From Eubacteriales bacterium (GTDB taxonomy: Bacteria > Bacillota > Clostridia > Oscillospirales > CAG-382), in NCBI GenBank assembly GCA_045540015.1, contig JAZQGP010000013.1, forward strand, positions 128,251 to 192,250: DNA of 64,000 nucleotides, written 5' to 3'. Positions within the stretch are counted from its first letter, which is position 1, and the number at the start of each line of letters is the position of its first letter. Shown here one piece after another: positions 27,923 through 55,913 of this stretch. The notes under the pieces were generated by a model. It did not search any database. It worked only from the letters and a program-made list of their open reading frames with translations, and was not told where the DNA came from. The position numbers and the translations under genes were made by a program.

Positions 27923-28597
27923 ATGTTTCACATTCTTGTTGTTGATGATGACCGTCATACCAGGATGCTTCTTGAAGCCATTTTGAAAGCGGAAAATTAT
28001 ACCGTATTCACTGCATCGAACGGAGAAGATGCCCTTAGTGTAATGGACAAAGAGCATATTGATCTTGTGGTGCTTGATATTATGATGCCGAAAATGGACG
28101 GCTATGAATTCACAAAGTTTCTTCGTGAAACGGATAATAATTTGCCAATCCTTATGGTATCTGCAAGACAGCTTCCTGCGGACAAGCGTAAGGGCTTCCT
28201 TGTGGGAACTGATGATTACATTACAAAGCCTATTGACGAAGAGGAAATGCTACTTCGTATAAAGGCTCTCCTTCGCCGTGCACAGATTGTTAACGAACAG
28301 AAGATGAAAATCGGCGAGGTTATTCTTGACTATAATTCCTTTTCCGTAAGCAGGAACGGAGAAACACAGGTATTGCCGCAAAAGGAGTTTCTGCTTCTGT
28401 ATAAGCTGCTTTCATACCCCGGACAGATTTTTACACGAATTCAGCTTATGGACGAAATTTGGGGAGCTGAAAGTGATACCGGGTGGGAAACTGTTACGGT
28501 ACACGTAGGACGACTTCGCAAACGCTTTGAAAACTGGAAGGAGTTTGAAATAGAGTCTGTAAGAGGACTCGGATACAGGGCGGTAAAGAGAGTATGA
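27923..28597 (+). CDS. OmpR/PhoB-family response regulator
   Basis: Receiver domain (VVDDD...DLVVLDIMMPKMDG) plus a winged-helix output domain (...VRGLGYRAV). Confidence 0.9.
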   Translation: MFHILVVDDDRHTRMLLEAILKAENYTVFTASNGEDALSVMDKEHIDLVVLDIMMPKMDGYEFTKFLRETDNNLPILMVSARQLPADKRKGFLVGTDDYITKPIDEEEMLLRIKALLRRAQIVNEQKMKIGEVILDYNSFSVSRNGETQVLPQKEFLLLYKLLSYPGQIFTRIQLMDEIWGAESDTGWETVTVHVGRLRKRFENWKEFEIESVRGLGYRAVKRV

Positions 28598-29655
28598 AAA
28601 AAGAAGAACGCAGACACAGACTGGCATTGACTTTGTTGGTTGCGGCATTTGTTTTCTGCATTATTCTCGTTGCCGTGATATTATCCGCAATTACAGTTTA
28701 TATTCTTTTGGATACGGGAGTTATTTCCACCATCGACGGAAGACCCGAGCCTATGCATACACTTATATTTATGGGACTTATCAGTCTTGTTATGGGCTCT
28801 GCGTTAACAGCGGTGATAAGTAAAATTTCCTTAAAGCCGGTAAACCGCATTATCGATCAGATGAACAGACTTGCTTCCGGAGATTTTAAGGCAAGACTGA
28901 AGATAGGAAAGCCGATAAATGCACATCCAACCTTTGTTGAAGTAACCGAGAGTTTTAACAAAATGGCACAGGAGCTTGAAAATACCGAAATGCTTCGCGG
29001 AGATTTTATAAACAACTTCTCACACGAATTCAAAACTCCCATAGTTTCAATTGCAGGCTTTGCAAAGCTTTTAAAACGCGGAAATCTCACCGAAGAACAG
29101 AAAAAAGAATATATTGACATAATTGAAGAGGAGTCAATGCGCCTTGCTGCAATGGCTACCAACGTTCTGAATTTGACAAAATACGAAAATCAAACAATTC
29201 TCACTGACGTAACAAGTTTTAATCTTTCCGAGCAGCTGCGTTCAAGCATCTTGTCTCTTGAAGGAAAATGGTCTAAAAAGAGTATTGATTTTAATCTTGA
29301 TTTCGGGGAACACATAATACAGGGAAACAAAGATATGCTCAAGCATGTCTGGATCAATCTTGTTGACAATGCCATTAAGTTCTCAAGCGGTGGCGGAACG
29401 GTCGAAATAGGAATAAGGGAACGAAGCGGATATTATGAAGTTTCCGTGCAGAATTGTGGCAGTGAAATTACACCCGAACAACAGAAAAAGATATTTAATA
29501 AATTCTATCAGGCAGATGAATCGCACGCATCTGAAGGTAACGGCGTTGGTCTTGCTCTTGTGAAGGGCATTTCTGAGCTTCACGGTGGAAAGGTTACCGT
29601 ACACTCCGAAGACGGCACTACTACCTTTACGGTAAGCCTGCCCAAAGAGCAATAA
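28594..29655 (+). CDS. sensor histidine kinase (two TM segments with a ~12-aa loop, HAMP, HisKA, HATPase)
   Basis: H-box FSHEFKTPI, N-box DNAIKFS, G-box GNGVGLALV. The very short extracytoplasmic loop suggests intramembrane sensing. Confidence 0.9.
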   Translation: MKKEERRHRLALTLLVAAFVFCIILVAVILSAITVYILLDTGVISTIDGRPEPMHTLIFMGLISLVMGSALTAVISKISLKPVNRIIDQMNRLASGDFKARLKIGKPINAHPTFVEVTESFNKMAQELENTEMLRGDFINNFSHEFKTPIVSIAGFAKLLKRGNLTEEQKKEYIDIIEEESMRLAAMATNVLNLTKYENQTILTDVTSFNLSEQLRSSILSLEGKWSKKSIDFNLDFGEHIIQGNKDMLKHVWINLVDNAIKFSSGGGTVEIGIRERSGYYEVSVQNCGSEITPEQQKKIFNKFYQADESHASEGNGVGLALVKGISELHGGKVTVHSEDGTTTFTVSLPKEQ

Positions 29656-29806: not shown

Positions 29807-29839
29807 GTTTCGTTTCAGTTTAGAAACAGATATTACACT
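29807..29839 (+). promoter_or_regulatory. operator-like motif (site c) plus -10 box upstream of the ABC exporter genes
   Basis: GTTTCGTTTCAGTTTAGA, 9 nt, then TACACT. Confidence 0.55.
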
Positions 29840-29871: not shown

Positions 29872-31623
29872 ATGATTCGTATCCTGAAGAAATTAAGGAA
29901 AAATGACGTGCTGTTGATTCTTGTTTCGGTCGTCTTTATCGCCGCTCAGGTATGGCTTGATTTGAAAATGCCCGACTATATGAGCGAGATCACGACTCTT
30001 GTGCAGACACCGGGCAATGAAATGCGGGACGTATTATTTGCCGGAGGAAAAATGCTTCTCTGTGCATTCGGCAGTCTTGTTTCGGCAGTCGCAGTTTCTA
30101 TTTTGTGCGCCAGAATTGCTACCGACTTCGGTGCTGATCTGCGTTCGGGGCTATATAACAAGGTTCTCTCATTTTCAAAGGGAGAAATCAGCAAGTTTTC
30201 CACCGCAAGTCTTATCACCCGAACCACCAACGATATTATGCAGGTACAAATGCTTATCATTATGGGCTTGCAGTCTATGATCAAGGCACCCTTGATGGGT
30301 ACTTGGGCGATTATTAAAATTGCGGGCAAAAACACCGAATGGACAATTACAACAGCCATAGCGGTCGCTTGCCTTTTGGTAGTTGTTGCACTGGCTATTG
30401 CGTTGATGCTTCCCAAATTCCGCAAGGTACAGAAGATGACTGATGACCTAAACCGTGTAACCCGAGAGAATCTCAGTGGTATCCGTGTTATCCGTGCCTA
30501 TAATGCCGAAGAATATCAACAGAGCAAATTTGATGCTACCAACACTGATCTTACAAAGGCACATTTGTTTACCGGCAGAGTTTCCGCGTTTATGATGCCT
30601 ACCATTCAAATGATTATGAGTGGACTCAGCCTTGCTATCTATTGGATCGGCGCAGCACTGATTGACAGTGCGGGAATGCAGGAAAAAATGGGGCTGTTTT
30701 CCGATATGATTGTATTTTCACAGTATGCAATGCAGGTCGTTATGGCGTTTATGATGCTGGTTATGCTCTTTATTATGCTTCCCCGTGCGTCCGTTTCGGC
30801 AAAGCGTATTCTTGAGGTTCTTGATACACCAATCTCTATTCATGACGGTGATGTTTCAGAAAGTAAAGCAAACCGTGAAGGTGAAATTGAATTCAAAAAC
30901 GTCAGCTTCCGTTATCCTGACGGCGAAGGTGATGTGATAGAGAACATCAGCTTTACGGCGAAAAAGGGAGAAACCGTTGCCATTATCGGCTCAACAGGAA
31001 GCGGAAAAACTACACTTATTGATTTGATTCCCCGTTTCTACGATGTAACAAGCGGCGAGGTACTCGTTGACGGCGTTAACGTAAAGAATTATAAATTAAA
31101 GACTCTTCGCAATAAAATCGGCTACGTTTCTCAAAAAGCTACCCTGTTTTCCGGAACGGTTCGCAGCAACGTTATCTTTGGCGATAGCGGACATAACCTC
31201 AATCAGAATTTTGTGGAATCCATTTACACCGCACAGGCGGCGGACTTTGTTGAGAAGATGGAAGGTAGCTATGACGGTGCCATTGCTCAGGGAGGTACAA
31301 ACCTTTCGGGTGGGCAAAAGCAGCGCCTTTCCATTGCCCGTGCTATCTGCCGCAGACCTGAAATTCTGATTTTTGACGATTCCTTCTCGGCACTTGACTA
31401 TAAAACAGATCGAGTGCTTCGCCAAAAAATGAATGAAGATTGCAAGAAGATAACCAAGCTGATCGTTGCACAGCGCATTGGTACCATTCGCGATGCAGAC
31501 CGCATCATTGTTCTGGACGAGGGCAAAATGGTCGGATACGGAAAGCATAAGGAGCTTATGGAAAACTGCGAGATTTACAGACAGATTGCCTTTTCACAAC
31601 TTTCAAAGGAGGAGCTTGCCTGA
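29872..31623 (+). CDS. ABC exporter, fused permease/ATPase (type I, heterodimer partner 1)
   Basis: Six-TM N-domain. Walker A GSTGSGKTT, signature LSGGQKQR, Walker B ILIFDDSFSALD. Confidence 0.9.
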   Translation: MIRILKKLRKNDVLLILVSVVFIAAQVWLDLKMPDYMSEITTLVQTPGNEMRDVLFAGGKMLLCAFGSLVSAVAVSILCARIATDFGADLRSGLYNKVLSFSKGEISKFSTASLITRTTNDIMQVQMLIIMGLQSMIKAPLMGTWAIIKIAGKNTEWTITTAIAVACLLVVVALAIALMLPKFRKVQKMTDDLNRVTRENLSGIRVIRAYNAEEYQQSKFDATNTDLTKAHLFTGRVSAFMMPTIQMIMSGLSLAIYWIGAALIDSAGMQEKMGLFSDMIVFSQYAMQVVMAFMMLVMLFIMLPRASVSAKRILEVLDTPISIHDGDVSESKANREGEIEFKNVSFRYPDGEGDVIENISFTAKKGETVAIIGSTGSGKTTLIDLIPRFYDVTSGEVLVDGVNVKNYKLKTLRNKIGYVSQKATLFSGTVRSNVIFGDSGHNLNQNFVESIYTAQAADFVEKMEGSYDGAIAQGGTNLSGGQKQRLSIARAICRRPEILIFDDSFSALDYKTDRVLRQKMNEDCKKITKLIVAQRIGTIRDADRIIVLDEGKMVGYGKHKELMENCEIYRQIAFSQLSKEELA

Positions 31624-33443
31624 TGGATAGCAAAAACAGAAATAACAGACCCGGTCCCGGCCCCGGACCTATGCCCGGCGGTCCCGAGAAGGCAAAGGAC
31701 ACCAAAGGCACCTGGGTTAAAATTATCAAGTATTGCCGCAAATATTGGACGGCAATGATTGTGGCAGTGCTTTCGGCAGGCATCGGTACGGTTCTCACCC
31801 TGCTTGGTCCGGATAAAATTTCAGACCTTACCAAAGTAATCGGTGAAGGTATTATGACCGGCATCGATATGGATAAGGTTGCTAAAATCGGCTTTACTTT
31901 GGTTGCATTTTATGCGTTTTCTTGGCTTCTTTCGGTATTACAGCAGTTCGTTATGAACCATGTAACGCAAAACGTATCAAAGAGCCTGCGTACCGATATT
32001 TCTAAGAAAATCAACCGTTTGCCAATGTGGTACTACAATACCACCTCCACAGGTGATGTGCTTTCCCGTGTCACCAATGACGTAGATATGATTGCGCAAT
32101 CGCTGAATCAGAGCGTAGGAACTTTAGTGCATTCGATTACCCTTTTTGTCGGCTCTATTATTATGATGCTTGTAACCGACGTTACAATGACGATCGCTGC
32201 GATTCTTTCCGTGCTTATCGGCTTCATTTTGATGGGTGCTATTATGGGGCGTTCCCAAAAATACTTCTCCCGTCAGCAAAAGGCTCTGGGTGCAGTAAAC
32301 GGTCAGATCGAAGAGATCTACTCCGGTCAAACCATTGTCCGTGCCTATAATGCTGAGGATAAGGCAAAAGAGGATTTTAACAAAATGAATTTCCATTTGC
32401 GTGACTGCGGTTTCAAGGCACAGTGCATTGCAGGTACAATGATGCCTATTATGGGCTTTATCGGCAACTTTGGCTATGTGGTCGTATGTGTTGTCGGTGC
32501 AATGCTGACGATGAACGGCAATATCGGTTTTGAGGTTATCGTTGCCTTTATGATGTATGTTCGTTACTTCACGCAGCCTCTTTCCCAAATGGCACAGGCA
32601 GCTCAGTCCCTACAGTCTGCCGCAGCCGCCGGTGAGCGTGTGTTTGAATTCCTTGAAGCAGAAGAAATGGCGGATGAAAGCAGTAAGACAACCGTTCTGG
32701 GCGATGTAAAAGGCACAGTTGAATTCGACCATGTAAGGTTTGGCTACGAGGACTCCGATAAAATAATTATCAAAGATTTTTCTGCCAAAGCAACGCCCGG
32801 TCAGAAGATTGCCATTGTCGGACCTACGGGAGCGGGTAAAACTACTCTTGTAAATCTGCTTATGCGTTTTCATGAGATTCAGAGTGGTGAAATCCGTATC
32901 GACGGCACGCCCACATCGGCTCTTACCCGCGAAAACGTGCATTCACAGTTCTGTATGGTCTTACAGGATACCTGGGTATTTGAAGGAACGGTGCGTGAAA
33001 ATCTGATGTATTGCTCTGAGGGTGCCACCGAGGAAAAAATGATTGCCGCTTGCAGGGCAGTTGGTCTTGACCATTTTATTCACACACTTCCCAAGGGATA
33101 CGACACTGTTCTTTCCGACAGCACCAACCTTTCGCAGGGGCAAAAACAACAGCTTACCATTGCCCGTGCTATGATTGCCGATAAGCCGATGCTGATTCTG
33201 GACGAGGCGACAAGCTCGGTTGATACAAGAACGGAGCTGCAGATTCAAAAGGCTATGGATGAACTGATGAAGAACAGAACCTCGTTTGTTATTGCACACA
33301 GACTTTCTACCATTAAAAACGCCGACCTTATTCTTGTTATCAAGGATGGCGATATTATTGAAAGCGGCAACCACGAAGAGCTTCTCTCACAGAACGGCTT
33401 CTATGCCGATCTATACAACAGCCAGTTTGAACAGGCATCGTAA
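31623..33443 (+). CDS. ABC exporter, fused permease/ATPase (heterodimer partner 2)
   Basis: Walker A GPTGAGKTT, signature LSQGQKQQ, Walker B LILDEATSSVD. Start overlaps the partner-1 stop. Confidence 0.9.
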   Translation: MDSKNRNNRPGPGPGPMPGGPEKAKDTKGTWVKIIKYCRKYWTAMIVAVLSAGIGTVLTLLGPDKISDLTKVIGEGIMTGIDMDKVAKIGFTLVAFYAFSWLLSVLQQFVMNHVTQNVSKSLRTDISKKINRLPMWYYNTTSTGDVLSRVTNDVDMIAQSLNQSVGTLVHSITLFVGSIIMMLVTDVTMTIAAILSVLIGFILMGAIMGRSQKYFSRQQKALGAVNGQIEEIYSGQTIVRAYNAEDKAKEDFNKMNFHLRDCGFKAQCIAGTMMPIMGFIGNFGYVVVCVVGAMLTMNGNIGFEVIVAFMMYVRYFTQPLSQMAQAAQSLQSAAAAGERVFEFLEAEEMADESSKTTVLGDVKGTVEFDHVRFGYEDSDKIIIKDFSAKATPGQKIAIVGPTGAGKTTLVNLLMRFHEIQSGEIRIDGTPTSALTRENVHSQFCMVLQDTWVFEGTVRENLMYCSEGATEEKMIAACRAVGLDHFIHTLPKGYDTVLSDSTNLSQGQKQQLTIARAMIADKPMLILDEATSSVDTRTELQIQKAMDELMKNRTSFVIAHRLSTIKNADLILVIKDGDIIESGNHEELLSQNGFYADLYNSQFEQAS

Positions 33444-33454
33444 GGAGATTTTTT

Positions 33455-34054
33455 ATGAGTCATAAATATATAGCAATTGAGCGAGAATACGGCAGCGGCG
33501 GCACGGAAATTGCCCGCCGCCTTGCCGAAGAATGTTCCGTTTCCTGTTACGGTCAGGAAATTCTTGAGGCAGTATCCAAAGAGTTTGGCGTTTCCATTGA
33601 AGAGATTCAAAAAAGCGAGGAAAACGTAACCAACAGCTTTCTTTATACTCTCTATGCCATCGGACAAATTCAGTCCGGAAATACGAGCGTTTTAACACAA
33701 GAAGGTAAACTCTTCGTAGCTGAACAAGAATTTATCCGCAAATCTGCTTTAAAAGGGTCAGCCATATATCTCGGGCACTGTGCATCGGAAGCACTTGACG
33801 GACTCGATGTGGTTCGCGTTTTTATTCGTTGCTCGGATAAGGATATAAAGGCAAAGCGTATTGAAGAGGAGTACGGCATACCTGCCGGAGAATGTGAAAG
33901 CGCCCGCAAGCGTTTTGATAATAAGCGCAGTAAATACTACTTTGCAAACACCGCAAAGAAATGGGAGGACCTTACAAATTACGACATTGTTCTGGACAGT
34001 GCAACTCTTGGAATTGACGGTTGCGTTTCCGTTTTGAAATGTATTATCGGGTAG
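33455..34054 (+). CDS. cytidylate-kinase-like family protein
   Basis: N-terminal IAIEREYGSGGTEIARRLAE, typical of the CMK-like AAA family common in Clostridia. Confidence 0.7.
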   Translation: MSHKYIAIEREYGSGGTEIARRLAEECSVSCYGQEILEAVSKEFGVSIEEIQKSEENVTNSFLYTLYAIGQIQSGNTSVLTQEGKLFVAEQEFIRKSALKGSAIYLGHCASEALDGLDVVRVFIRCSDKDIKAKRIEEEYGIPAGECESARKRFDNKRSKYYFANTAKKWEDLTNYDIVLDSATLGIDGCVSVLKCIIG

Positions 34055-34084: not shown

Positions 34085-34495
34085 ATGAAAAGATGGTTTC
34101 AAAATTTAGGTGAGAAAATGCAAAGGTGGATGTATGGCAGATACGGATACGATGAGCTATCGAAGTTTCTGACAATATGTGCTTTTGTGCTTATCCTTCT
34201 TTCCGACGTTTCACCTATATTTAATACCTTGGCTCTTATTATGCTCATATGGTCGATGTTCCGCATTTATTCGAGAAATACTGCAAAAAGACAAGGTGAA
34301 CGTCAGAAATATCTGCAGATAAAGACAAAAATCAAGCAATTCTTTTTGAGGCACAGAAATATGTTCAGAGAACGCAAGACTCACATTTATTTCAAATGCC
34401 CGTCATGCAAGATTTATCTCAGAGTTCCCAAAGGCAAAGGAACAATAGAAATAACCTGCCCCAAGTGCAAAAACAAAGTTACCAAAAAAACATAA
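34085..34495 (+). CDS. membrane protein with C-terminal zinc ribbon (paralog 1)
   Basis: Two TM segments, then YFKCPSCKIYLRVPKGKGTIEITCPKCKNK. Paralogous to 38676-39098. Confidence 0.65.
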   Translation: MKRWFQNLGEKMQRWMYGRYGYDELSKFLTICAFVLILLSDVSPIFNTLALIMLIWSMFRIYSRNTAKRQGERQKYLQIKTKIKQFFLRHRNMFRERKTHIYFKCPSCKIYLRVPKGKGTIEITCPKCKNKVTKKT

Positions 34496-34504
34496 GGAGT
34501 TATT

Positions 34505-35338
34505 ATGTTTGGATACATACAGGCAAATACCTGCGACCTTTCAACAGATGAAAAGCTGAGATATAAATCGGTATATTGCGGAATATGTCACTCTATAGGT
34601 GACCGTTATGGAAATATTGCACGAATGGGACTAAGCTATGACCTGACGTTTCTTGCCCTGCTATGCTCATCTCTTTATGAGCCTGCTTGTGAATGTACTA
34701 AACGCAGGTGTGTGATTCACCCTTGCAAAAGTCACAGTTGTATTAACAATAAGTATATTGACTACGCAGCAGACATGACGGTTGCCCTGATGTATCATAA
34801 ATGTCTCGATGACTGGAATGACGATAGGAACATTGCAATGAAATGCTATGCCTCTCTGCTTTTAAGGTCATACAACACAATAAAAAAAGCTTGGCCTGAG
34901 CAATGCCGGTGTATCGAACGGGAGCTTGAAACCATTTCCGGTATAGAAAGAAATGATAACGGCGATGCCGATGCCGCATCAAAAAGCTTTGGCAGGCTTA
35001 TGGCATGTGTGTTTGCTCCGGAAAAGGACAATTGGAAGTCGTATCTTGAAGACATCGGATATGGACTTGGTAGGTATATATATATTGCAGATGCCGCAGT
35101 GGATCTGAAAAAAGATATAAAAAAAGGCAGCTATAATCCGTTAAAAGCAACTATGCCACAGCCCGAATTGGTAAAAAGCGCACTTAAAATTATGCTGGGA
35201 GAATCCTCAAAAGCATTTGAGGCATTGCCGCTTGAAGAAGATCTGGGGCTGCTAAGAAACATTTTGTATTCCGGGGTCTGGATAAAATACAACAGAGGAA
35301 TGCAAAAAAGGAAAGGAAGAAAAGTAAATGGTGAGTGA
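34505..35338 (+). CDS. DUF5685-like protein
   Basis: N-terminal MFGYIQANTCDLSTDEKLRYKSVYCGICHSIG...YDLTFLALL resembles the DUF5685 family, judged by recollection of the family pattern. Confidence 0.55.
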   Translation: MFGYIQANTCDLSTDEKLRYKSVYCGICHSIGDRYGNIARMGLSYDLTFLALLCSSLYEPACECTKRRCVIHPCKSHSCINNKYIDYAADMTVALMYHKCLDDWNDDRNIAMKCYASLLLRSYNTIKKAWPEQCRCIERELETISGIERNDNGDADAASKSFGRLMACVFAPEKDNWKSYLEDIGYGLGRYIYIADAAVDLKKDIKKGSYNPLKATMPQPELVKSALKIMLGESSKAFEALPLEEDLGLLRNILYSGVWIKYNRGMQKRKGRKVNGE

Positions 35339-36155
35339 TCCTTATCAGGTGCTTGGTGTTTCCAGAAATGCCACACAGGACGAAATCAAAAAAGCATATC
35401 GCAGAAAGGCAAAGGAATACCATCCCGACCTTCATCCGAATGACCCCACGGCAACGCAAAAAATGAACGAGGTAAATGTTGCTTACGATATGCTTATGAA
35501 TCCCGATAAATATGAGGCAAAACGTGCGCAGCAGCAACATCAGTCACAGAACCGTGGCTACGGTGGTTATGGAAACGGCGGATATTCGGGAAACTATAAC
35601 GGAAACCGTTACGGAGGAGGATATTCATCGGGCGGACAAGGCAGCTCTTCCGGCAGCAATAATTCCTCCGGCGGCTATCAGGGGCCGGGCGGATGGTCAA
35701 GCGATTTTGGAGGCTTCGGCTTTGAAGACATATTCGGATTTGGTTTTGAGCAGCAGAACGTATCATTAAATCCTCAATATGAATCGGGAGACAGTCCGCA
35801 GATACGAAGAGTGGTTGACGAGATCAACAACAGGCGTTATCAGGCTGCAATCGGAATATTGACATACATTCCGAGCTCCGGAAGAAATGCAAGATGGTTC
35901 TATTTGTCAGCACTTGCAAATCACGGTCTCGGAAACACTGTACAGGCAATCGATCATATGCAAAAAGCGGCACAGATGGAACCGGGAAATAACAATTATC
36001 GCCTGATATTACAAAAATTCAAAAAAGCTGAGCAAACTTATGAAAATAATGCTCAGGGCTTCAATATGAACATTATGAATATGCAAAAATTATGTTTTGG
36101 CTGTATGGCGGCTCAGTGTCTCTGCGGTCCGTTCGGATGCCTCAGGTGTATTTAA
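35328..36155 (+). CDS. J-domain protein with G/Y-rich linker, TPR-like region and Cys-rich C-terminal tail
   Basis: J domain DPYQVLGV...YHPDL. No CxxCxGxG zinc-finger domain. Tail [20 protein letters not shown]. Confidence 0.8.
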
Positions 36156-36171
36156 TGAAAGGAATAAAAAC

Positions 36172-37950
36172 ATGGGAAAAACGATAGGTATAGATCTTGG
36201 AACAACAAACAGCTGTGTGTCGGTAATTGAAGGCGGAAAGCCTGTTATAATACCGAACGAACACGGTGGAAGAACAACACCGAGCATCGTTGCCTTTACA
36301 CAAAACGGCGAACGGCTTGTGGGAGACACAGCAAGGAGGCAGGCAGTGGCAAATGCATCACGCACTGTTTCTTCGGTAAAACGCCACATGGGAACAGATT
36401 GGCATATAAATATCGATGGCAAAAGCTTCACTCCCCAGGAAATAAGTGCTATGATTCTCAGAAAATTAAGAAAGGATGCAGAGGAGTATCTCGGAACGGA
36501 GGTTACAGATGCTGTCATCACCGTTCCTGCATATTTTAACGACATCCAAAGACAAGCAACCAAGGACGCCGGAAGAATTGCGGGGCTTAATGTAAAACGA
36601 ATAATTAACGAGCCTACAAGTGCTGCCCTTGCTTACGGGCTTGACAACGGCACACCGCAGAAAATTATGGTTTATGACCTTGGAGGCGGAACCTTTGACG
36701 TATCAATAATTGAAATCGGTGAAGGCGTTATAGAGGTGCTTGCTACCAACGGTGACAATAATTTGGGCGGTGACGATTTTGATGCACGCATAACAGAACA
36801 TCTTCTCTCAGAAATCAAAAGACAGTATAAAGTTGATTTAAGATGTGATTTTTCTGCACTTAAGCGTGTGCAAGAGGCAGCAGAGCAAGCTAAAAAAGAG
36901 CTTTCTTCTACTGATAATTCGTATATTTCTCTGCCGTATCTCACACAGACAGGAAGCACGGTTGTGAACTTTGAATACACACTGACACGTTCTAAATTCA
37001 ACGAGCTTACACGCGATCTTGTTGACCGCACTTCAGGTCCTGTGCAAAATGCACTTAATGATGCCGGTATCGCACCTACCGAGCTTGGTAAGGTTATCCT
37101 TGTCGGAGGCTCAACACGTATTCCTGCCGTTCAGGAAAAGGTTCGTCAGCTTACCGGCATTGTTCCCTCAAAGAATATAAATCCCGATGAGTGCGTGGCA
37201 CAGGGGGCTGCGATTCAGGGTGATACACTTTCGGGAGGTGCTTTAACACTTTCGGGTTCTGATGGTAGCATCCTTCTTCTTGACGTAACGCCGCTGAGTC
37301 TGTCAATCGAAACGGTAGGCGGTGTCGCAACCCGTCTTGTCGAAAGAAATTCCACCTTGCCGATTCACTATTCACAGGTTTTCTCCACGGCAGCACCATT
37401 CCAGAGCAGTGTTGAAATCCACGTTTTGCAGGGTGAGCGCCCGATGGCAAAGGATAACAAGACCATCGGTAAATTTAAACTGAATGGAATAAAAAAAGCA
37501 CCTGCCGGTGTACCACAGATCGAAGTAACTTTTGACATTGATGCCAACGGCATTCTTAAGGTTTCGGCAAAAGATCTTGATACCGGCAAGGAGCAGTCAA
37601 TTACCATTTCCAATAACGAAAAAATGTCCGATGCCGAAATTGAGCAAGCCATTCGTGACGCTGAACAATATGCGGCGCAGGATAATATCCGCCGTGAAGC
37701 GCTGACTGTAACAAACGAAGCAAGTCATACCCTTGCCAAAGCAGAACAGGCATTGAACAAAGTCGGTAAAAAGCTTGAAAAGGAAGAGAAAAAGCAAATA
37801 AAATCTGACATTTCCGCTCTTCGCAAGCTTCTTGTGAAAACAAAACCCGAAAAGATGTCAAGCACCGAAATATCTGATATACGCTCAGCAATGGTACGTC
37901 TTGAGGCATCAAGTGCCAATGCACAAAGTATGGCACAGGAGGAGCAATAA
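36172..37950 (+). CDS. Hsp70/DnaK-family chaperone (not in an hrcA-grpE-dnaK-dnaJ context)
   Basis: [22 protein letters not shown], and substrate-binding domain [20 protein letters not shown] at 36172; the track TTG start 36097 overlaps the J-protein gene. Confidence 0.9.
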
Positions 37951-38050
37951 TATTTTAAACATAGGAGGCAGAGATACATAGAATGTGGAGCGAAGAAGAC
38001 GAAAAAAATATGAGAAAGATACTGTCCGCTACTGATGATGCAACATCGGA

Positions 38051-38707
38051 GTGGATACAAAAGAACTTAAGACACTTATGATGTACTATAAATGTGCCAT
38101 GCTGGAGATAGAAACGAAATTCAATGTGTTAAACGAAGAATATTCCCTGGAGCATGACCGTAATTCCATCAGCACCATTAAAACAAGGCTAAAGTCCCCT
38201 CAGAGTATCAGAGCAAAAATGCTGGCAAAGGATGTTCCGGTAACTCCTGATACTGTTGAAGAAACACTGAATGATATTGCAGGTGTAAGGGTGATCTGAT
38301 CCTTCCCTGAGGATGTTTACACATTGGCGGATGCTCTTCTCAAGCAGGACGATGTCATATTGATTGAGAAGAAGGACTATATTGCAAATCCAAAGCCCAA
38401 CGGCTACCGCAGTCTGCACATGATTGTGGCAATCCCCATATTTTTAGATCATGAAAAGCATTTGATAAAGGTTGAAATTCAACTTCGCACTATTGCAATG
38501 GATTTTTGGGCGACTCTTTAGCACCAGCTTTGCTACAAGAAGAACCACGATATTACCGAGGAAATGGCTTTGGAAATGTCGGCGTGTGCCGAACTCAGTG
38601 CAGCACTTGATGCACGCATGGACAGACTTCGTAAAAGTGTCTTTACAAGTTCATCTGAAAATATGGAAAGAAGTAATGCAGGTGAAGAAAAGATCACAAA
38701 AACTTAA
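38051..38707 (+). pseudogene. small alarmone synthetase (RelQ/RelP-like RelA/SpoT domain) with two in-frame stop codons
   Basis: A single reading frame carries DIAGVRVI-TGA-SFPEDVY...GYRSLHMIV...EIQLRTIAMDFWATL-TAG-HQLCYKK. TGA (38297-38299) sits where homologues have Cys, and TAG (38519-38521) where they have Glu. Confidence 0.75.
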
Positions 38708-39098
38708 AGAAAGAATAAAGAATCGTCTTGATCAAGCCTACGGCTTAGACGAAATTGTTTTTGAACTCGTTGCAATAGGACTGTTTTTTATACTGCTGGA
38801 TATATTTACAAATCTCGCATACATATCGTACTTCAGTATTATTTTTCTGCTTTTGGGATGTTTTCGTTGCTATTCTGCAAACATTGAGGCACGAAAAGAA
38901 GAATTACGGATTTATGAGAATTTCAAATCAGACTGTGCCGAATGGTTAAATAAACAGCAGGAAAATCTCAAAGACAAGATTACATACAAATACGTGAAAT
39001 GCCCTCATTGCGGTACGGTAATCAAACTGCCTCGCAGGCTTGGAGAGATAACAGTCACTTGTCCGAAATGTAACAATAAATTTAATAAGAATGTATAA
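38676..39098 (+). CDS. membrane protein with C-terminal zinc ribbon (paralog 2)
   Basis: YGLDE...FRCYSANIEARKEE...YVKCPHCGTVIKLPRRLGEITVTCPKCNNK aligns with 34085-34495. The ATG at 38676 is the only Met before the TM region. Confidence 0.6.
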   Translation: MQVKKRSQKLKERIKNRLDQAYGLDEIVFELVAIGLFFILLDIFTNLAYISYFSIIFLLLGCFRCYSANIEARKEELRIYENFKSDCAEWLNKQQENLKDKITYKYVKCPHCGTVIKLPRRLGEITVTCPKCNNKFNKNV

Positions 39099-39111
39099 AG
39101 GTGCAAATGTG

Positions 39112-39873
39112 ATGCAAAAGAAAAAAGAGTGTGTCAAAGTGAAAGAACCGATGTCAAATATCCGCAAAACTTACTTTGTAAGACTTATCGGCAGAAGCAT
39201 GGTTTTTGTTGTTGCGGTTTTTCTTTATTTGTTAAAGCCGGAAAGCATGAATGTTTTGTACGGCGGTAATTTTTTCAAGGAACTTTCACCCTTGCATATC
39301 TTGTGGTTAATATGGATAATTGATATGATTTACCAGCTCGTTCCTGTGAAAAACAAGCTTCCTCTCGGCAGTCAAAAGCTGTTTAAGGAACGATTCAAGC
39401 CCATTCGTGAAAAGATAAATTACGAATCACTGAAGGCTTATGTGATATCCACTACAAAATCAGCATATAAAGTATTTATACTTTGGGCAATGCTGATACT
39501 GATGCTTGGTATTCTGTACAATCTCGACGTACTTACCGCAGAGCACTTGTTTCTGGTTTGCGTAGCATTTTATGTTTGCGATCTTATATGTGTTCTCATA
39601 TGGTGTCCCTTCAGACTTATAATGAAAAACAAATGCTGTACAACCTGCAGAATATTTAACTGGGATCATCTTATGATGTTCACTCCCTTGCTTTTTGTCA
39701 ACAGCTTTTATTCGGTGTCGTTATTACTTTTAGCCTTTGCCGTTTGGGTTGTGTGGGAGCTGTGCGTGATGATGTACCCCGAACGCTTTTGGGAACATAC
39801 AAATGAAGCTCTACGTTGTTCGGAATGTACAGATAAGCTTTGTACGCAGTACTGCAGAAAGCTCAGACAATAA
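39112..39873 (+). CDS. polytopic membrane protein with Cys-rich motifs
   Basis: Several TM segments. CCTTCRIFNWDH and C-terminal CSECTDKLCTQYC. ATG at 39112 lies 7 nt after AAAGGTG. No family recognised. Confidence 0.5.
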   Translation: MQKKKECVKVKEPMSNIRKTYFVRLIGRSMVFVVAVFLYLLKPESMNVLYGGNFFKELSPLHILWLIWIIDMIYQLVPVKNKLPLGSQKLFKERFKPIREKINYESLKAYVISTTKSAYKVFILWAMLILMLGILYNLDVLTAEHLFLVCVAFYVCDLICVLIWCPFRLIMKNKCCTTCRIFNWDHLMMFTPLLFVNSFYSVSLLLLAFAVWVVWELCVMMYPERFWEHTNEALRCSECTDKLCTQYCRKLRQ

Positions 39874-39886
39874 ATACAGTCTTTTG

Positions 39887-39913
39887 AAGAGCCTCCAGGT
39901 GAGGCTCTTTTGT
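39887..39913 (+). terminator. intrinsic terminator
   Basis: Stem AGAGCCTC / GAGGCTCT with loop caggt, then TTTTGTT. Confidence 0.65.
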
Positions 39914-39931
39914 TATAAAAAATGAATTAAA

Positions 39932-39964
39932 GTTTCGTTTCAGTTTAGATTACCTTGTTATACT
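39932..39964 (+). promoter_or_regulatory. operator-like motif (site d) plus -10 box upstream of the flavodoxin-like gene
   Basis: GTTTCGTTTCAGTTTAGA, 9 nt, then TATACT. Confidence 0.55.
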
Positions 39965-40020
39965 TTTGCTGTAAAAAGACAAAGTACGACAATATCATAC
40001 AGTTATCGGGAAGGAGTAAG

Positions 40021-40527
40021 ATGATGAAATACGAAATAGCATACCTGAGTGTTTCGGGTAACACAGAAAAGCTTGCACACGGAATTGCCGACAGATTTCC
40101 GCACGAGGACACCTTTGTCACAGATTTATCCTGTGAAAGTATTACGAAGAAAGCGGATATATATATCATCGGCTTCGGTGTTGATAAAGGAACCATTCCT
40201 TTGAGGATTATCGAAGCACTGGAAGAAATTGAGGGCAAGCCGTATATGTTCTTTATAACAGGCTGTATGGAGCCGACAGAGGCATATAAAGAAAATGTCG
40301 AGCAGAAGCTTTTGCCGTTTTTGCCGGATGACGGAGATTACAGAGGTATCTTTATGTGCCGTGGAAAAATTTCAGATGAAGCGAGAAGTGCATTGAATAA
40401 AAAGCTTTATGAAGCACCTGAAAATCCGTCACTTGCCGAAATTTTACGTCAGGCAAAGCTGTCAGAAAACCATCCCGACAGTGTGGATGTTGAAAATGCA
40501 TACGCATTTGTCAGAGAGCGGATATAG
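40021..40527 (+). CDS. flavodoxin-family protein
   Basis: N-terminal IAYLSVSGNTEKLA FMN-binding loop. ATG at 40021 follows GGAAGGAG. Confidence 0.7.
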   Translation: MMKYEIAYLSVSGNTEKLAHGIADRFPHEDTFVTDLSCESITKKADIYIIGFGVDKGTIPLRIIEALEEIEGKPYMFFITGCMEPTEAYKENVEQKLLPFLPDDGDYRGIFMCRGKISDEARSALNKKLYEAPENPSLAEILRQAKLSENHPDSVDVENAYAFVRERI

Positions 40528-40574: not shown

Positions 40575-42401
40575 ATGCGTGAAGTGAAAAACCCAAAAAA
40601 ACCGTTGATGTTTTATTACGGTATTGCATTGCTTGTAATTATACTGTTTAATTCCATAGTAATGCCTATGATTGCCGAAGGACGTGTCAAGGAGGTTGAT
40701 TACGGAACCTTTATGGCAATGACTGAAGACAAAAATATTGGTCTTGTTAAAATCAGCGAAAGCGATAATCAGATTACCTTTACAGATAAAACACGAGAAA
40801 AAATATATAAAACGGGAATGATGAATGATCCGGAGATCACATCAAGGTTATATGAAGCAGGAGCAAGCTTTAAGGGAGAAATTATTGAAGAACCCAACTT
40901 TCTTGTAAGCTTTATTATGACATGGATACTGCCCATGGTGCTGTTTTTCGGGATAGGACAATTTATGTCAAAAAAGATGATGGATAAAGCAGGCGGCGGC
41001 TCGGGTGCCATGATGTTCAATATGGGTAAATCCAACGCCAAGGTCTATGTAAAATCCGAAAACGGCATAAAATTTGACGATGTTGAAGGCGTTGATGAGG
41101 CAGAGGAGAGCCTGCAGGAGGTTGTGGACTATCTTCACAATCCCAAGAAATACACCGAAATAGGAGCGCAAATGCCTAAAGGTATTCTTCTTGTAGGACC
41201 TCCCGGCACAGGTAAAACAATGCTTGCTAAGGCGGTTGCGGGCGAAGCAAATGTACCCTTCTTTTCAATGAGCGGCTCTGAATTTGTTGAAATGTTTGTA
41301 GGTATGGGTGCTTCAAAGGTGCGAGATCTCTTCAAGCAGGCTAAAGAAAAAGCTCCCTGCATTGTCTTTATTGATGAGATTGACGCTATTGGAGGAAAAA
41401 GAGCATCAGGTGGCATAAGCGGAGGACATGATGAGCGTGAGCAGACATTAAATCAGCTCCTCACCGAAATGGATGGCTTTGAGGGTAACAGCGGTGTTAT
41501 GATTCTTGCGGCAACCAACCGTCCCGAATCTCTTGACCCTGCACTTACCCGTCCCGGACGTTTTGACAGGCGTGTTCCCGTTGAGCTTCCCGATCTTAAG
41601 GGCAGAGAGGCAATTCTCAAGGTGCACTGCAAAAAAATCAAAACTGCTCCCGACATTGACTTTACACAGGTTGCACGCATGGCTTCGGGCGCATCCGGTG
41701 CCGAGCTTGCCAACATAGTAAACGAAGCAGCTTTGCGAGCTGTACGTGCCGGCAGAAAGGCAGCGACACAGGCAGATCTTGAGGAAAGCATAGAGGTTGT
41801 TATTGCGGGTTATCAAAAAAAGAATGCTATTCTCACCGACAAAGAAAAAATGGTGGTGGCATATCACGAAATAGGTCATGCGCTTGTTGCAGCAAAGCAG
41901 ACAAACTCTGCTCCCGTTCAAAAAATTACAATAGTTCCACGTACCTCTGGTGCTCTCGGTTACACAATGCAGGTTGATGAGGGAAATCATTACCTTATGA
42001 GTAAGGAAGAAATCGAAAATAAAATCGCAACCTACACAGGCGGAAGAGTGGCAGAGGAAATCGCCGTAGGCTACATTACAACAGGAGCTTCAAATGACAT
42101 TGAACAGGCAACAAGACTTGCCCGTTCCATGATTACACGTTTCGGTATGAGTAATAAATTTGGCATGATGGCTCTTGAAACTGTTACAAATCAGTATCTT
42201 GGCGGTGATGCTTCGCTTGCCTGCTCTGCGGAAACACAGACGGAAATAGACCGTCTTGCATCTGAGCTTATAAAACAACAATATGAAAAAGCAAAGAAGA
42301 TTATAACGGAAAATAAAACAAAGCTTGATGAGCTTGCAAAATATCTTTATACACACGAAACCATCACCGGAGAAGAATTTATGAATATTCTTAATAGCTG
42401 A
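40575..42401 (+). CDS. ftsH: ATP-dependent zinc metalloprotease FtsH
   Basis: Walker [12 protein letters not shown] region, and zinc site HEIGHAL. Confidence 0.95.
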
Positions 42402-55852: not shown

Positions 55853-55890
55853 CAAACCGGACTTATAGAAAGCCCGGTTTGTTTCGTTTC
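55853..55890 (+). terminator. intrinsic terminator
   Basis: Stem CAAACCGG / CCGGTTTG, then a T-rich run that overlaps site e. Confidence 0.45.
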
Positions 55891-55913
55891 AGTTTAGAAA
55901 ACAGCTTTATAAT
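55881..55913 (+). promoter_or_regulatory. operator-like motif (site e) plus -10 box
   Basis: GTTTCGTTTCAGTTTAGA, 9 nt, then TATAAT (55908-55913). Confidence 0.55.

Follow-up and report, generated by a model that had tools for sequence, protein, structure and literature searches.

Several specialised Hsp70/J-protein systems are known in bacteria, including HscA-HscB (Fe-S), HscC with DjlB or DjlC, and DjlA, which works with DnaK in Escherichia coli. In eukaryotes, J-proteins can carry lipids, as in the palmitoylated cysteine-string protein DNAJC5 and in Ydj1/DNAJA, which are farnesylated at a CaaX end. Endogenous protein prenylation is, to our knowledge, regarded as a eukaryotic trait. In bacteria, ComQ (acting on ComX) and PalQ, enzymes with the fold of trans-type isoprenyl diphosphate synthases (trans-IDS), prenylate a peptide encoded by the adjacent gene, and the bacterial peptide prenyltransferases characterised so far modify Trp in small peptides (PMC13290415). 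Here, a 64,000-nucleotide stretch of an Eubacteriales bacterium genome (GenBank assembly GCA_045540015.1, contig JAZQGP010000013.1, positions 128,251 to 192,250 of the forward strand; hereafter the window) was analysed, in which a gene module at 34085-39873 encodes a DUF5685 protein, an atypical J-protein with a Cys-rich tail, an Hsp70 of the DnaK type and two membrane proteins with zinc ribbons. The conserved core of this module is DUF5685 together with a Cys-tailed protein, usually with a J domain and a TPR-like region, and not the Hsp70. We tentatively propose, at somewhat less than an even chance, that the module is stress-inducible and directs Hsp70 to the membrane, with DUF5685 modifying the Cys tail of the J-protein.

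All six open reading frames (ORFs) listed in the initial annotation are present on the + strand, but a pseudogene between the Hsp70 gene and the second zinc-ribbon gene had been overlooked. The module and its end are as follows, with names as used below.

34085-34495, + strand: ZnR1, a small membrane protein of 136 aa with two transmembrane (TM) helices and a C-terminal zinc ribbon
34505-35338, + strand: DUF5685 protein (PF18937, E 2e-93), with a predicted isoprenoid-synthase alpha fold
35328-36155, + strand: atypical J-protein, with a J domain, a G/Y/S-rich linker, a TPR-like region and a Cys-rich tail
36172-37950, + strand: dedicated DnaK-type Hsp70 paralog, full length with 592 aa (PF00012, E 2e-218)
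~37984-38707, + strand: pseudogene of a small alarmone synthetase (SAS; RelQ/YjbM-like), with RelA_SpoT fragments and three lesions
38676 (or 38682)-39098, + strand: ZnR2, a ZnR1 paralog with the same layout but a diverged N-terminal motif
39112-39873, + strand: CysTM, a Cys-rich polytopic membrane protein without a Pfam or NCBIfam match
39886-39917, + strand: intrinsic terminator, a hairpin with a U-tract (folding free energy -15.1 kcal/mol, z -2.76), which ends the transcription unit

The tight spacing that had been pointed out earlier is real. The DUF5685 and J-protein genes overlap by 11 nt (35328/35338), spacers of 9 nt and 16 nt separate ZnR1 from DUF5685 and the J-protein gene from the Hsp70 gene, a ribosome-binding site lies upstream of every start codon in the module, and the terminator closes the series. 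The overlapping genes point to coupling. For ZnR2, a start at the GTG of 38682 is more probable; the protein would then have 138 aa, the length of its ortholog in L153 (L and G numbers denote the loci and genomes compared).

In a sample of 401 genomes from across the phylum, 48 carry PF18937. Two sets of loci were compared, the first consisting of 38 loci from these genomes and three metagenome or assembly loci (40 evaluable), and the second of 22 named genomes (20 evaluable). A tail was counted as Cys-rich if its final 30 residues contained 5-11 Cys. The gene that immediately follows DUF5685 encodes such a tail in 33 of the 40 loci of the first set and in all 20 of the independent second set, across many families. 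Against a background of 1.9% of raw ORFs in this genome, the pairing of DUF5685 with the Cys tail is therefore not due to chance. In most loci the two genes overlap, start to stop. Moreover, five partners without a J domain or HPD motif retain the Cys tail, suggesting that DUF5685 and the tail form the constant link. A ZnR-type protein is adjacent in about 25 of the 60 loci, other subfamilies carrying a polytopic membrane protein at this place, and most genomes with DUF5685 have the housekeeping DnaK only. The earlier view of a non-canonical Hsp70 module has thus to be revised, since a dedicated Hsp70 belongs to the module in some lineages only.

Where an Hsp70 gene is adjacent, its product belongs either to clade A (window, L076, L078, L099-L103, L117 and L153) or to clade B (L040, L048, L074, L084, L109 and L150), and gene order differs in the latter; in L040, L048, L074 and L150 the same four components stand together in rearranged orders. 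The neighbours are kept with the Hsp70 among relatives, as a check of neighbourhood conservation showed: the closest contigs (L153-155) have exactly the order of the window, ZnR1-DUF5685-J-Hsp70-SAS-ZnR2-CysTM, and L076, L078, L099-L103 and L117 have a similar one. Synteny in the nearest relatives reaches as far as flavodoxin and ftsH.

The DUF5685 protein of the window matches positions 1-271 of the 272 of the PF18937 profile with 313 bits (cut-off 26.7). In an alignment of 45 members, C25, C28 and C69 are invariant and the fourth position, H72, is variable. D102 and D106 are also invariant and lie within DDWND, a putative first Asp-rich motif of the DDxxD form; G189, Y193, D196, D200 and, nearly so, D204 are likewise invariant and make up a DxxxDxxxD motif; further invariant or near-invariant residues are E148, N211 and N252. 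The AlphaFold2 model is all-alpha (pLDDT 93.6, pTM 0.91), with DDxxD placed at the C-terminal end of the helix 83-107. Searched against the PDB with Foldseek, this model gave matches of which those listed are mostly isoprenoid-diphosphate enzymes (prob 0.9-1.0, TM-score 0.5-0.59, best E 2.5e-3), including, at prob 1.0, MoeN5, the geranylgeranyl, farnesyl and octaprenyl diphosphate synthases (GGPPS, FPPS, OPPS) and trichodiene synthase. An isoprenoid-synthase (trans-IDS/class I terpenoid synthase) fold is predicted with high confidence from the model. A candidate for the second Asp-rich motif (SARM), D196-A-x-x-D200-x3-D204, has the i, i+4, i+8 spacing of the NSE/DTE motif. The description of a Cys-motif DUF5685-like protein in the initial annotation holds for the family and the Cys motif but falls short of the predicted fold and the Asp-rich motifs. 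DUF5685 was also aligned by hhalign to 10 trans-IDS sequences, taken from this genome and from relatives; the sole local match is the SARM region, which is not significant (prob 1.2%, E 0.043); in it, G189-Y193-D196 aligns with the G-Q-DD of trans-IDS at identical spacing. The DUF5685 profile retrieved from the PDB only designed helical repeats and one insignificant match to a hexaprenyl synthase. Prenyl diphosphates are available in this organism, since its genome encodes a single ordinary polyprenyl synthase.

The family reaches beyond Bacillota, as Thermotoga maritima, a cultured and structurally tractable organism included as a control genome, also scores above the PF18937 cut-off. In addition, the divergent DUF5685-like genes of L059, L061 and L069 (family f75) have, a few kb away, a tandem pair of Hsp70 paralogs that lack the lid, are 510 aa long and show ~40% identity to DnaK, accompanied in L061 by a GrpE-like gene. 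The genes 3' of these DUF5685-like genes encode proteins without Cys tails, and the three loci look like a separate Hsp70 link to the DUF5685 superfamily.

The initial annotation had described the J-protein as atypical, with a G/Y linker, a TPR-like segment and a Cys tail in place of the zinc finger and C-terminal domains, and Pfam searches and the ortholog alignment agree with this. Pfam detected the J domain only (PF00226, E 2e-21, aa 4-61, with HPD in KEYHPDLHP) and neither the DnaJ zinc finger (CXXCXGXG) nor the C-terminal domains, and the score for TIGR02349 is 78.8, below the cut-off of 377. The TPR-like helical domain covers approximately aa 165-245 and the Cys-rich tail aa 256-275. Across 36 orthologs, H32, P33 and D34 are invariant or nearly so, as are A174, L178, W190, A214, P219, N221 and Y224 and, in the tail, C256 and C266. 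The TPR-like pattern in these orthologs, AxWYYLSAxAxxxxGNxxxAxxxxxxAxxxxPxNxxY, is accompanied by sub-threshold matches to TPR_CcmH_CycH (E 0.008) and MamA (E 9e-5), and this part of the L041 ortholog is modelled as five helices with pLDDT >90. This J-protein is the only one in the genome besides DnaJ. In the L150 J-protein, the Cys region is internal and is followed by an extension of ~45 aa.

The partner tails are Cys-rich, with 5-11 Cys per 25 residues, and lack a conserved Trp; some are also rich in acidic residues (CCCECMGGD). This composition resembles that of metal-binding sequences, so the Cys string may instead be a redox or metal switch, comparable to the zinc centres of Hsp33 or DnaJ, through which oxidative, metal or envelope stress would turn on the J-protein, with DUF5685 as a non-catalytic partner or a metal deliverer. 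The two-component stress regulon described below, which includes a flavodoxin gene, would be in line with such a switch, but flavodoxin is the only redox link in that regulon, and the invariant Asp motifs of DUF5685 at diphosphate/Mg2+ positions argue for catalysis on a diphosphate substrate. A redox or metal switch therefore appears improbable to us.

Modification of the tail by DUF5685, as proposed above, can be put into the following scheme. A membrane-sensing two-component system would switch on the module along with FtsH, the exporter and, ancestrally, the alarmone synthetase. The Asp motifs of DUF5685 and Mg2+ would hold a prenyl diphosphate, and its three-Cys site would hold zinc and alkylate the tail cysteines of the J-protein; three Cys with a variable fourth ligand resemble the thiol-activating zinc sites of protein farnesyltransferase (FTase), MetH and BHMT. 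Judged from the structural model and by analogy, the chemistry may be prenylation. The lipidated J-protein would then reside at the membrane, where the Zn-ribbon protein may join it, and we infer from this a membrane tethering of the chaperone system. Through its HPD motif, the J-protein would stimulate ATP hydrolysis by the dedicated Hsp70 (in most other species by DnaK), and the activated Hsp70 would handle membrane or membrane-proximal clients under envelope stress, the paralog either sharing the single GrpE or working without an exchange factor. The stronger claim, that DUF5685 is the founding member of a family of bacterial protein cysteine S-prenyltransferases on the isoprenoid-synthase fold, with the Cys string of the J/TPR protein as its dedicated substrate and a lipid-anchored Hsp70 recruiter as the product, is doubtful, although we consider it a serious possibility.

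Several observations weigh against this scheme. No isoprenoid family (PF00348, PF00494 or terpene synthases) can be detected for DUF5685 at the sequence level, in agreement with the hhalign probability given above, and none recurred in a Pfam scan of the 45 members with E values up to 5. The second Asp of the SARM is Ala in DUF5685 (DAxxD), Tyr193 occupies the position of the Gln conserved in Trp-prenyltransferases, and the characterised trans-IDS-like peptide prenyltransferases all act on Trp, not Cys (PMC13290415). The tail ends vary (…CLRCI, …CCPFC, …ISCC, …CGSPL) and share no fixed CaaX-like motif. A search with a fusion profile found no natural DUF5685-J fusion among 1.84 billion representative proteins. 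As a docking test, a natural in-frame DUF5685-J arrangement of L041 was read through its TAA stop (3-residue link) and modelled by AlphaFold2 with a block-diagonal alignment; the resulting model is compact (pTM 0.79) but has the Cys tail unplaced at pLDDT ~50, a neutral to negative outcome. DUF5685 and the module are absent from all nine sampled genomes of the same genus (G401-G409), and the module is thus dispensable. Finally, no copy of the putative regulator box (RR box, below) lies directly before ZnR1 in the window, where co-regulation rests on read-through from the box at 29807.

In another explanation, which the compact fusion model with its confident J and TPR parts and unplaced tail would fit, DUF5685 and the J-protein form a chaperone-client or regulator pair without covalent modification and DUF5685 is an isoprenoid-lipid enzyme that, for example, makes or trims a membrane terpenoid. 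The J/TPR protein would bind DUF5685 through its TPR region or tail and bring Hsp70 to fold, assemble or switch it, while the Cys tail would bind Zn or Fe-S or plug the hydrophobic cavity of the enzyme. The data on fold, motifs and adjacency fit such a pair equally well, TPR domains are typical protein-protein adaptors, and Hsp70/J pairs with a single client are generally known, as in HscA/HscB with IscU. The pTM of an artificial fusion with a 3-residue link is, however, weak evidence, and a non-covalent pair leaves unexplained why the Cys tail and not the J/TPR part is constant, as the five partners without a J domain illustrate, and why Cys3 is invariant with a variable H72, which suggests an open zinc site. 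Such a pair is in our judgement rather unlikely, and modification of the tail is retained as the working proposal.

The canonical hrcA-grpE-dnaK-dnaJ operon is present on contig C49 of the same assembly, and the assembly as a whole encodes a single GrpE and a single HrcA, with two J-proteins and two Hsp70s. The DnaK-type gene of the window, correctly noted at the outset to lack hrcA, grpE and dnaJ neighbours, is therefore an extra copy. Its product shares 56.7% identity with the DnaK of the canonical operon and scores 815.5 with NF001413 (cut-off 648) and 800.8 with TIGR02350, below the cut-off of 822.55. The nucleotide-binding domain, linker, substrate-binding domain and lid are all there. 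Among 18 canonical DnaKs, 185 columns are conserved to at least 95%; the window protein retains 176 of these, with every ATPase and linker motif among them, and EVTFDID is present. It was not identified as HscA, since its TIGR01991 score of 559 is below the cut-off of 708.55, and no isc genes are adjacent.

The module-linked Hsp70s differ from canonical DnaKs in outer loops of the substrate domain. FSTAA-D-(N/G/S)-Q is changed so that D-(N/G/S)-Q gives way to x-(F/Y)-Q in 17 of 17 module-linked Hsp70s and in 0 of 18 canonical DnaKs. A second loop, GI(P/A)(P/A)APRG, could be read by its pattern in 10 of 11 clade-A and 3 of 6 clade-B sequences and has become GI(K/R)(K/R)AP(A/R)G in all of these, whereas the 15 canonical DnaKs with a readable pattern all keep GI(P/A)(P/A)A. 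The window Hsp70 carries PFQ and GIKKAPAG, and also has an insertion of ~7 aa before the interdomain linker, where clade A inserts 7-15 residues. In E. coli DnaK numbering, we take the loops to be D431/N432 and the R467 loop, near the A429 arch and the lid latch. To judge from the sequences, the loops mark a specialised substrate site, whether convergent or inherited. A first tree placed the module-linked Hsp70s in two clades, and a quick tree joined both clades with a support of 95. In a careful tree with the signature columns omitted, clade A stood next to one family's DnaK (100/99) and clade B next to the DnaK of a different family (96/91), with monophyly costing 26 log-likelihood units and not quite rejected by the approximately unbiased test (p-AU 0.06). 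The trees thus disagree on a single versus a dual origin of the module-linked Hsp70s, and the window Hsp70 appears to have arisen from a clostridial DnaK.

These results also bear on a further explanation, that of an ordinary spare dnaK beside unrelated genes, kept together by inherited synteny without functional coupling. The extension of synteny to flavodoxin and ftsH in the nearest relatives and the nine same-genus genomes without the module would suit it. By contrast, the four components recur rearranged in distant families whose Hsp70 clade is placed apart by the careful tree, genes of the module overlap, and the substrate-domain loop signatures are confined to module-linked Hsp70s, so that this explanation is disfavoured as very improbable.

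The proposed stress-inducible module lies downstream of a two-component system and an exporter, and the features that bear on its regulation are as follows.

27923-28597, + strand: OmpR-type response regulator (RR), the putative module regulator
28594-29655, + strand: histidine kinase (HK) with two TM helices and a loop of ~16 aa
29807-29824, + strand: 18-bp RR box GTTTCGTTTCAGTTTAGA with a -10-like box after it; putative promoter of the ABC exporter, CMPK and the module
29872-31623 and 31623-33443, + strand: fused ABC exporter genes ABC1 and ABC2, co-directional with the module
33455-34054, + strand: cytidylate-kinase-like gene CMPK (PF13189), 30 bp upstream of ZnR1
39932-39949, + strand: second exact RR box with the -10-like TATACT, before flavodoxin (39955-40527) and ftsH (40575-42401)
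55881-55898: third exact RR box, far from the module, followed by TATAAT

The HK appears from its layout to be of the intramembrane-sensing type. Exact copies of GTTTCGTTTCAGTTTAGA number three genome-wide, all of them in the window (29807, 39932 and 55881), and a -10-like hexamer (TAnAnT) stands 8-9 nt beyond the box at the three window sites and at 12 or more sites in relatives. The RR boxes fit a putative OmpR/PhoB-type regulon, with a repeated operator at -35 regions and next to a regulator gene, and the RR/HK pair at 27923-29655 is the obvious candidate to bind the 18-bp box. Degenerate copies of the box at 29655 (+) and 27748 (-) flank the two-component genes, the copy upstream of the RR gene suggesting autoregulation.

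In relatives, an exact RR box lies 50-56 bp upstream of ZnR1 in L153 (52 bp) and L099, and L153 has another exact box upstream of an intact SAS gene; the box precedes the regulator gene in L101 and L104 and ABC1 in L102 and L103. RR-box promoters in the closest relatives would thus drive the module, SAS, the ABC exporter and flavodoxin-ftsH. Orthologs of the two-component genes adjoin the module in L101, L103 and L104 (RR 75-82%, HK ~60% identity), ABC1 and ABC2 orthologs (72-78% identity) are adjacent in L102 and L103, and a CMPK ortholog (63% identity) has the equivalent position in L102. A CMPK of 28% identity is also found near the module in G190 (L045). In the window, the exporter, CMPK and ZnR1 follow one another at distances of 11 and 30 bp with no RR box or terminator between them, and the first terminator is that at 39886, suggesting that the module is probably read from the 29807 promoter. 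The initial annotation was thus right to set the module between RR-motif sites at 29807 and 39932; the boxes are real, and the regulon includes the module, as the boxes before ZnR1 in L153 and L099 indicate. In G413 (L150), a divergent pair of RR-HK homologs stands beside Hsp70-DUF5685-J-ZnR. The 143-bp divergent region between this pair and the module contains three direct repeats with an 11-bp period (ATCAACCGAAA; L150 4960-4995), which are probably the operator of L150's own regulator.

Orthologs of the upstream ABC exporter are absent from the nine same-genus genomes (identity at most 41%), as is DUF5685, which marks the whole RR-HK-ABC-module block as accessory. The SAS gene is present in only two of the nine, at another location. 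The best relatives of the block (72-92% identity) are found in metagenome-assembled genomes (MAGs) labelled Oscillospiraceae, Ruminococcus or Ornithomonoglobus, and this distribution suggests that the block was either transferred horizontally or lost repeatedly. L117 (JAUNIP010000005.1), a MAG labelled Coriobacteriia (Actinomycetota), also contains the complete module, ZnR-DUF5685-J-Hsp70, in which the Hsp70 is of clade A (68% identity), reflecting either cross-phylum transfer or a binning error.

The SAS gene of the window is, from its sequence, apparently dead. PF04607 matches it as two fragments, and compared with the intact L153 ortholog (246 aa) it carries a 10-bp deletion after 38056, a TGC>TGA change at 38297-38299 and a GAG>TAG change at 38519-38521. 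Selenocysteine insertion or read-through at the in-frame TGA was considered and is excluded by the accompanying 10-bp frameshift deletion and by the TAG at a conserved Glu. The gene is intact and syntenic in L153, L076 and L078, the L078 ortholog matching GTPPhKinYjbM with E 1e-51. A terminator hairpin and an RR box lie between Hsp70 and SAS in L153 (4384-4520), making SAS-ZnR2-CysTM a separate RR-controlled unit there; this spacer is lost in the window, where 33 bp separate the Hsp70 stop codon from the SAS ATG.

ZnR1 and ZnR2 had been taken for paralogous membrane proteins with the same zinc ribbon, and their 31% identity and common two-TM layout support this. Both have a head, GRYGxDxL in ZnR1 and diverged in ZnR2, followed by two TM helices, an RxxSRN motif, a basic linker and the C-terminal CPxC...CPxC ribbon. 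ZnR2 orthologs occupy the equivalent position in L153 and L078. CysTM belongs to a family of >4,000 clusters with 65-84% identity across many Clostridia, for which there is no Pfam or NCBIfam model and which is worth study in its own right. In L156 (6001-6765), a 74%-identical homolog is located among dlt-like genes (MBOAT, PP-binding, AMP-binding) and the module is absent, ruling out CysTM as a core member. The gene at 39112 had been assigned to the unit, and it is indeed present and co-transcribed here, but since the family occurs in unrelated contexts its membership is doubtful. The earlier idea of one functional unit therefore stands in so far as the series is conserved, tightly packed and closed by a terminator, and has to be qualified in that its core is a different one, a dead SAS gene lies inside it and CysTM may not belong to it.

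A full-text search of the literature found DUF5685 merely listed by name in one paper and the module undescribed, and nothing on Cys-tailed bacterial J-proteins or on bacterial S-prenylation by such enzymes. The link to the regulator, the loop signatures of the Hsp70s, the decay of the SAS gene and the finding that the block is accessory are new here, and DUF5685 gains a predicted fold and a candidate active site. With ~3,000 clusters at 50% identity, the module would be a candidate on which lipidation of bacterial proteins and Hsp70 action at the membrane could be tested directly. It could be the first system for prenylating protein cysteines in bacteria, although we consider this doubtful; if so, Clostridia would make a lipid-anchored Hsp70 recruiter, the counterpart of eukaryotic cysteine-string and farnesylated J-proteins.

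Compared with ComQ/ComX and PalQ, the module shares the predicted isoprenoid-synthase fold with an Asp-rich motif, an enzyme gene just before, and often overlapping, the partner gene, and candidate acceptor residues near the C-terminus of the partner; both systems occur in Bacillota. DUF5685 differs from ComQ and PalQ in having no detectable sequence relation to them, Tyr for Gln, DAxxD for the second DDxxD and an extra three-Cys site, and its partner is a co-chaperone of 190-275 aa, not a secreted pheromone peptide like ComX. Among the features that define the ComQ/PalQ/ChrPC-P enzymes, which are a Gln upstream of the SARM, a Trp acceptor and an adjacent substrate gene (PMC13290415), only the adjacent gene was found. 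The best structural match of the DUF5685 model is MoeN5, the moenomycin prenyltransferase (PDB 5B02/5B03), likewise a small enzyme (~260 aa) with the trans-IDS fold, which transfers a prenyl group to an acceptor other than isopentenyl diphosphate; it differs in that identity is 10-13% with a TM-score of ~0.55, its acceptor is a lipid and it has no Cys3 site.

Like DNAJC5 and Ydj1, the partner has a J domain and, after it, a string of Cys or a C-terminal Cys, which in the eukaryotic proteins anchors the co-chaperone and Hsp70 at membranes. Unlike these, it is bacterial, has a TPR-like middle part and no CaaX, and its lipidation is a proposal. The predicted fold of DUF5685 differs from the alpha-alpha barrel of FTase and geranylgeranyltransferase and from DHHC palmitoyltransferases, and with this other fold and no fixed CaaX, CC or CXC tail end, DUF5685 and its partners do not fall into the CaaX/Rab prenyltransferase class. 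The regulation recalls that of relP and relQ, which are induced by envelope stress under VraRS or sigma-M in Staphylococcus and Bacillus: the SAS gene of relatives has its own RR-box promoter, in a regulon with ftsH and the ABC exporter. It differs in that SAS is dead in this genome and the regulator is an uncharacterised OmpR-type pair.

As in HscA-HscB and HscC with its Djl partners, an extra Hsp70 stands beside a dedicated J-protein that is not of the DnaJ type, and DjlA, DjlB and DjlC are membrane-anchored. Unlike the Hsp70s of the HscA and HscC systems, the paralog is DnaK-like and apparently derived from a clostridial DnaK, and any anchor would be the Cys tail and not a TM helix; an isoprenoid-fold partner and a Zn-ribbon protein are without counterpart in the HscA, HscC and DjlA systems. 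The module thus belongs among the specialised Hsp70/J systems. Even without a lipid, it would add a third kind to the specialised Hsp70 systems of bacteria, one that has a clear two-component input and an Hsp70 whose substrate domain is remodelled in a diagnostic way, and that would play a role in Clostridia abundant in gut and rumen.

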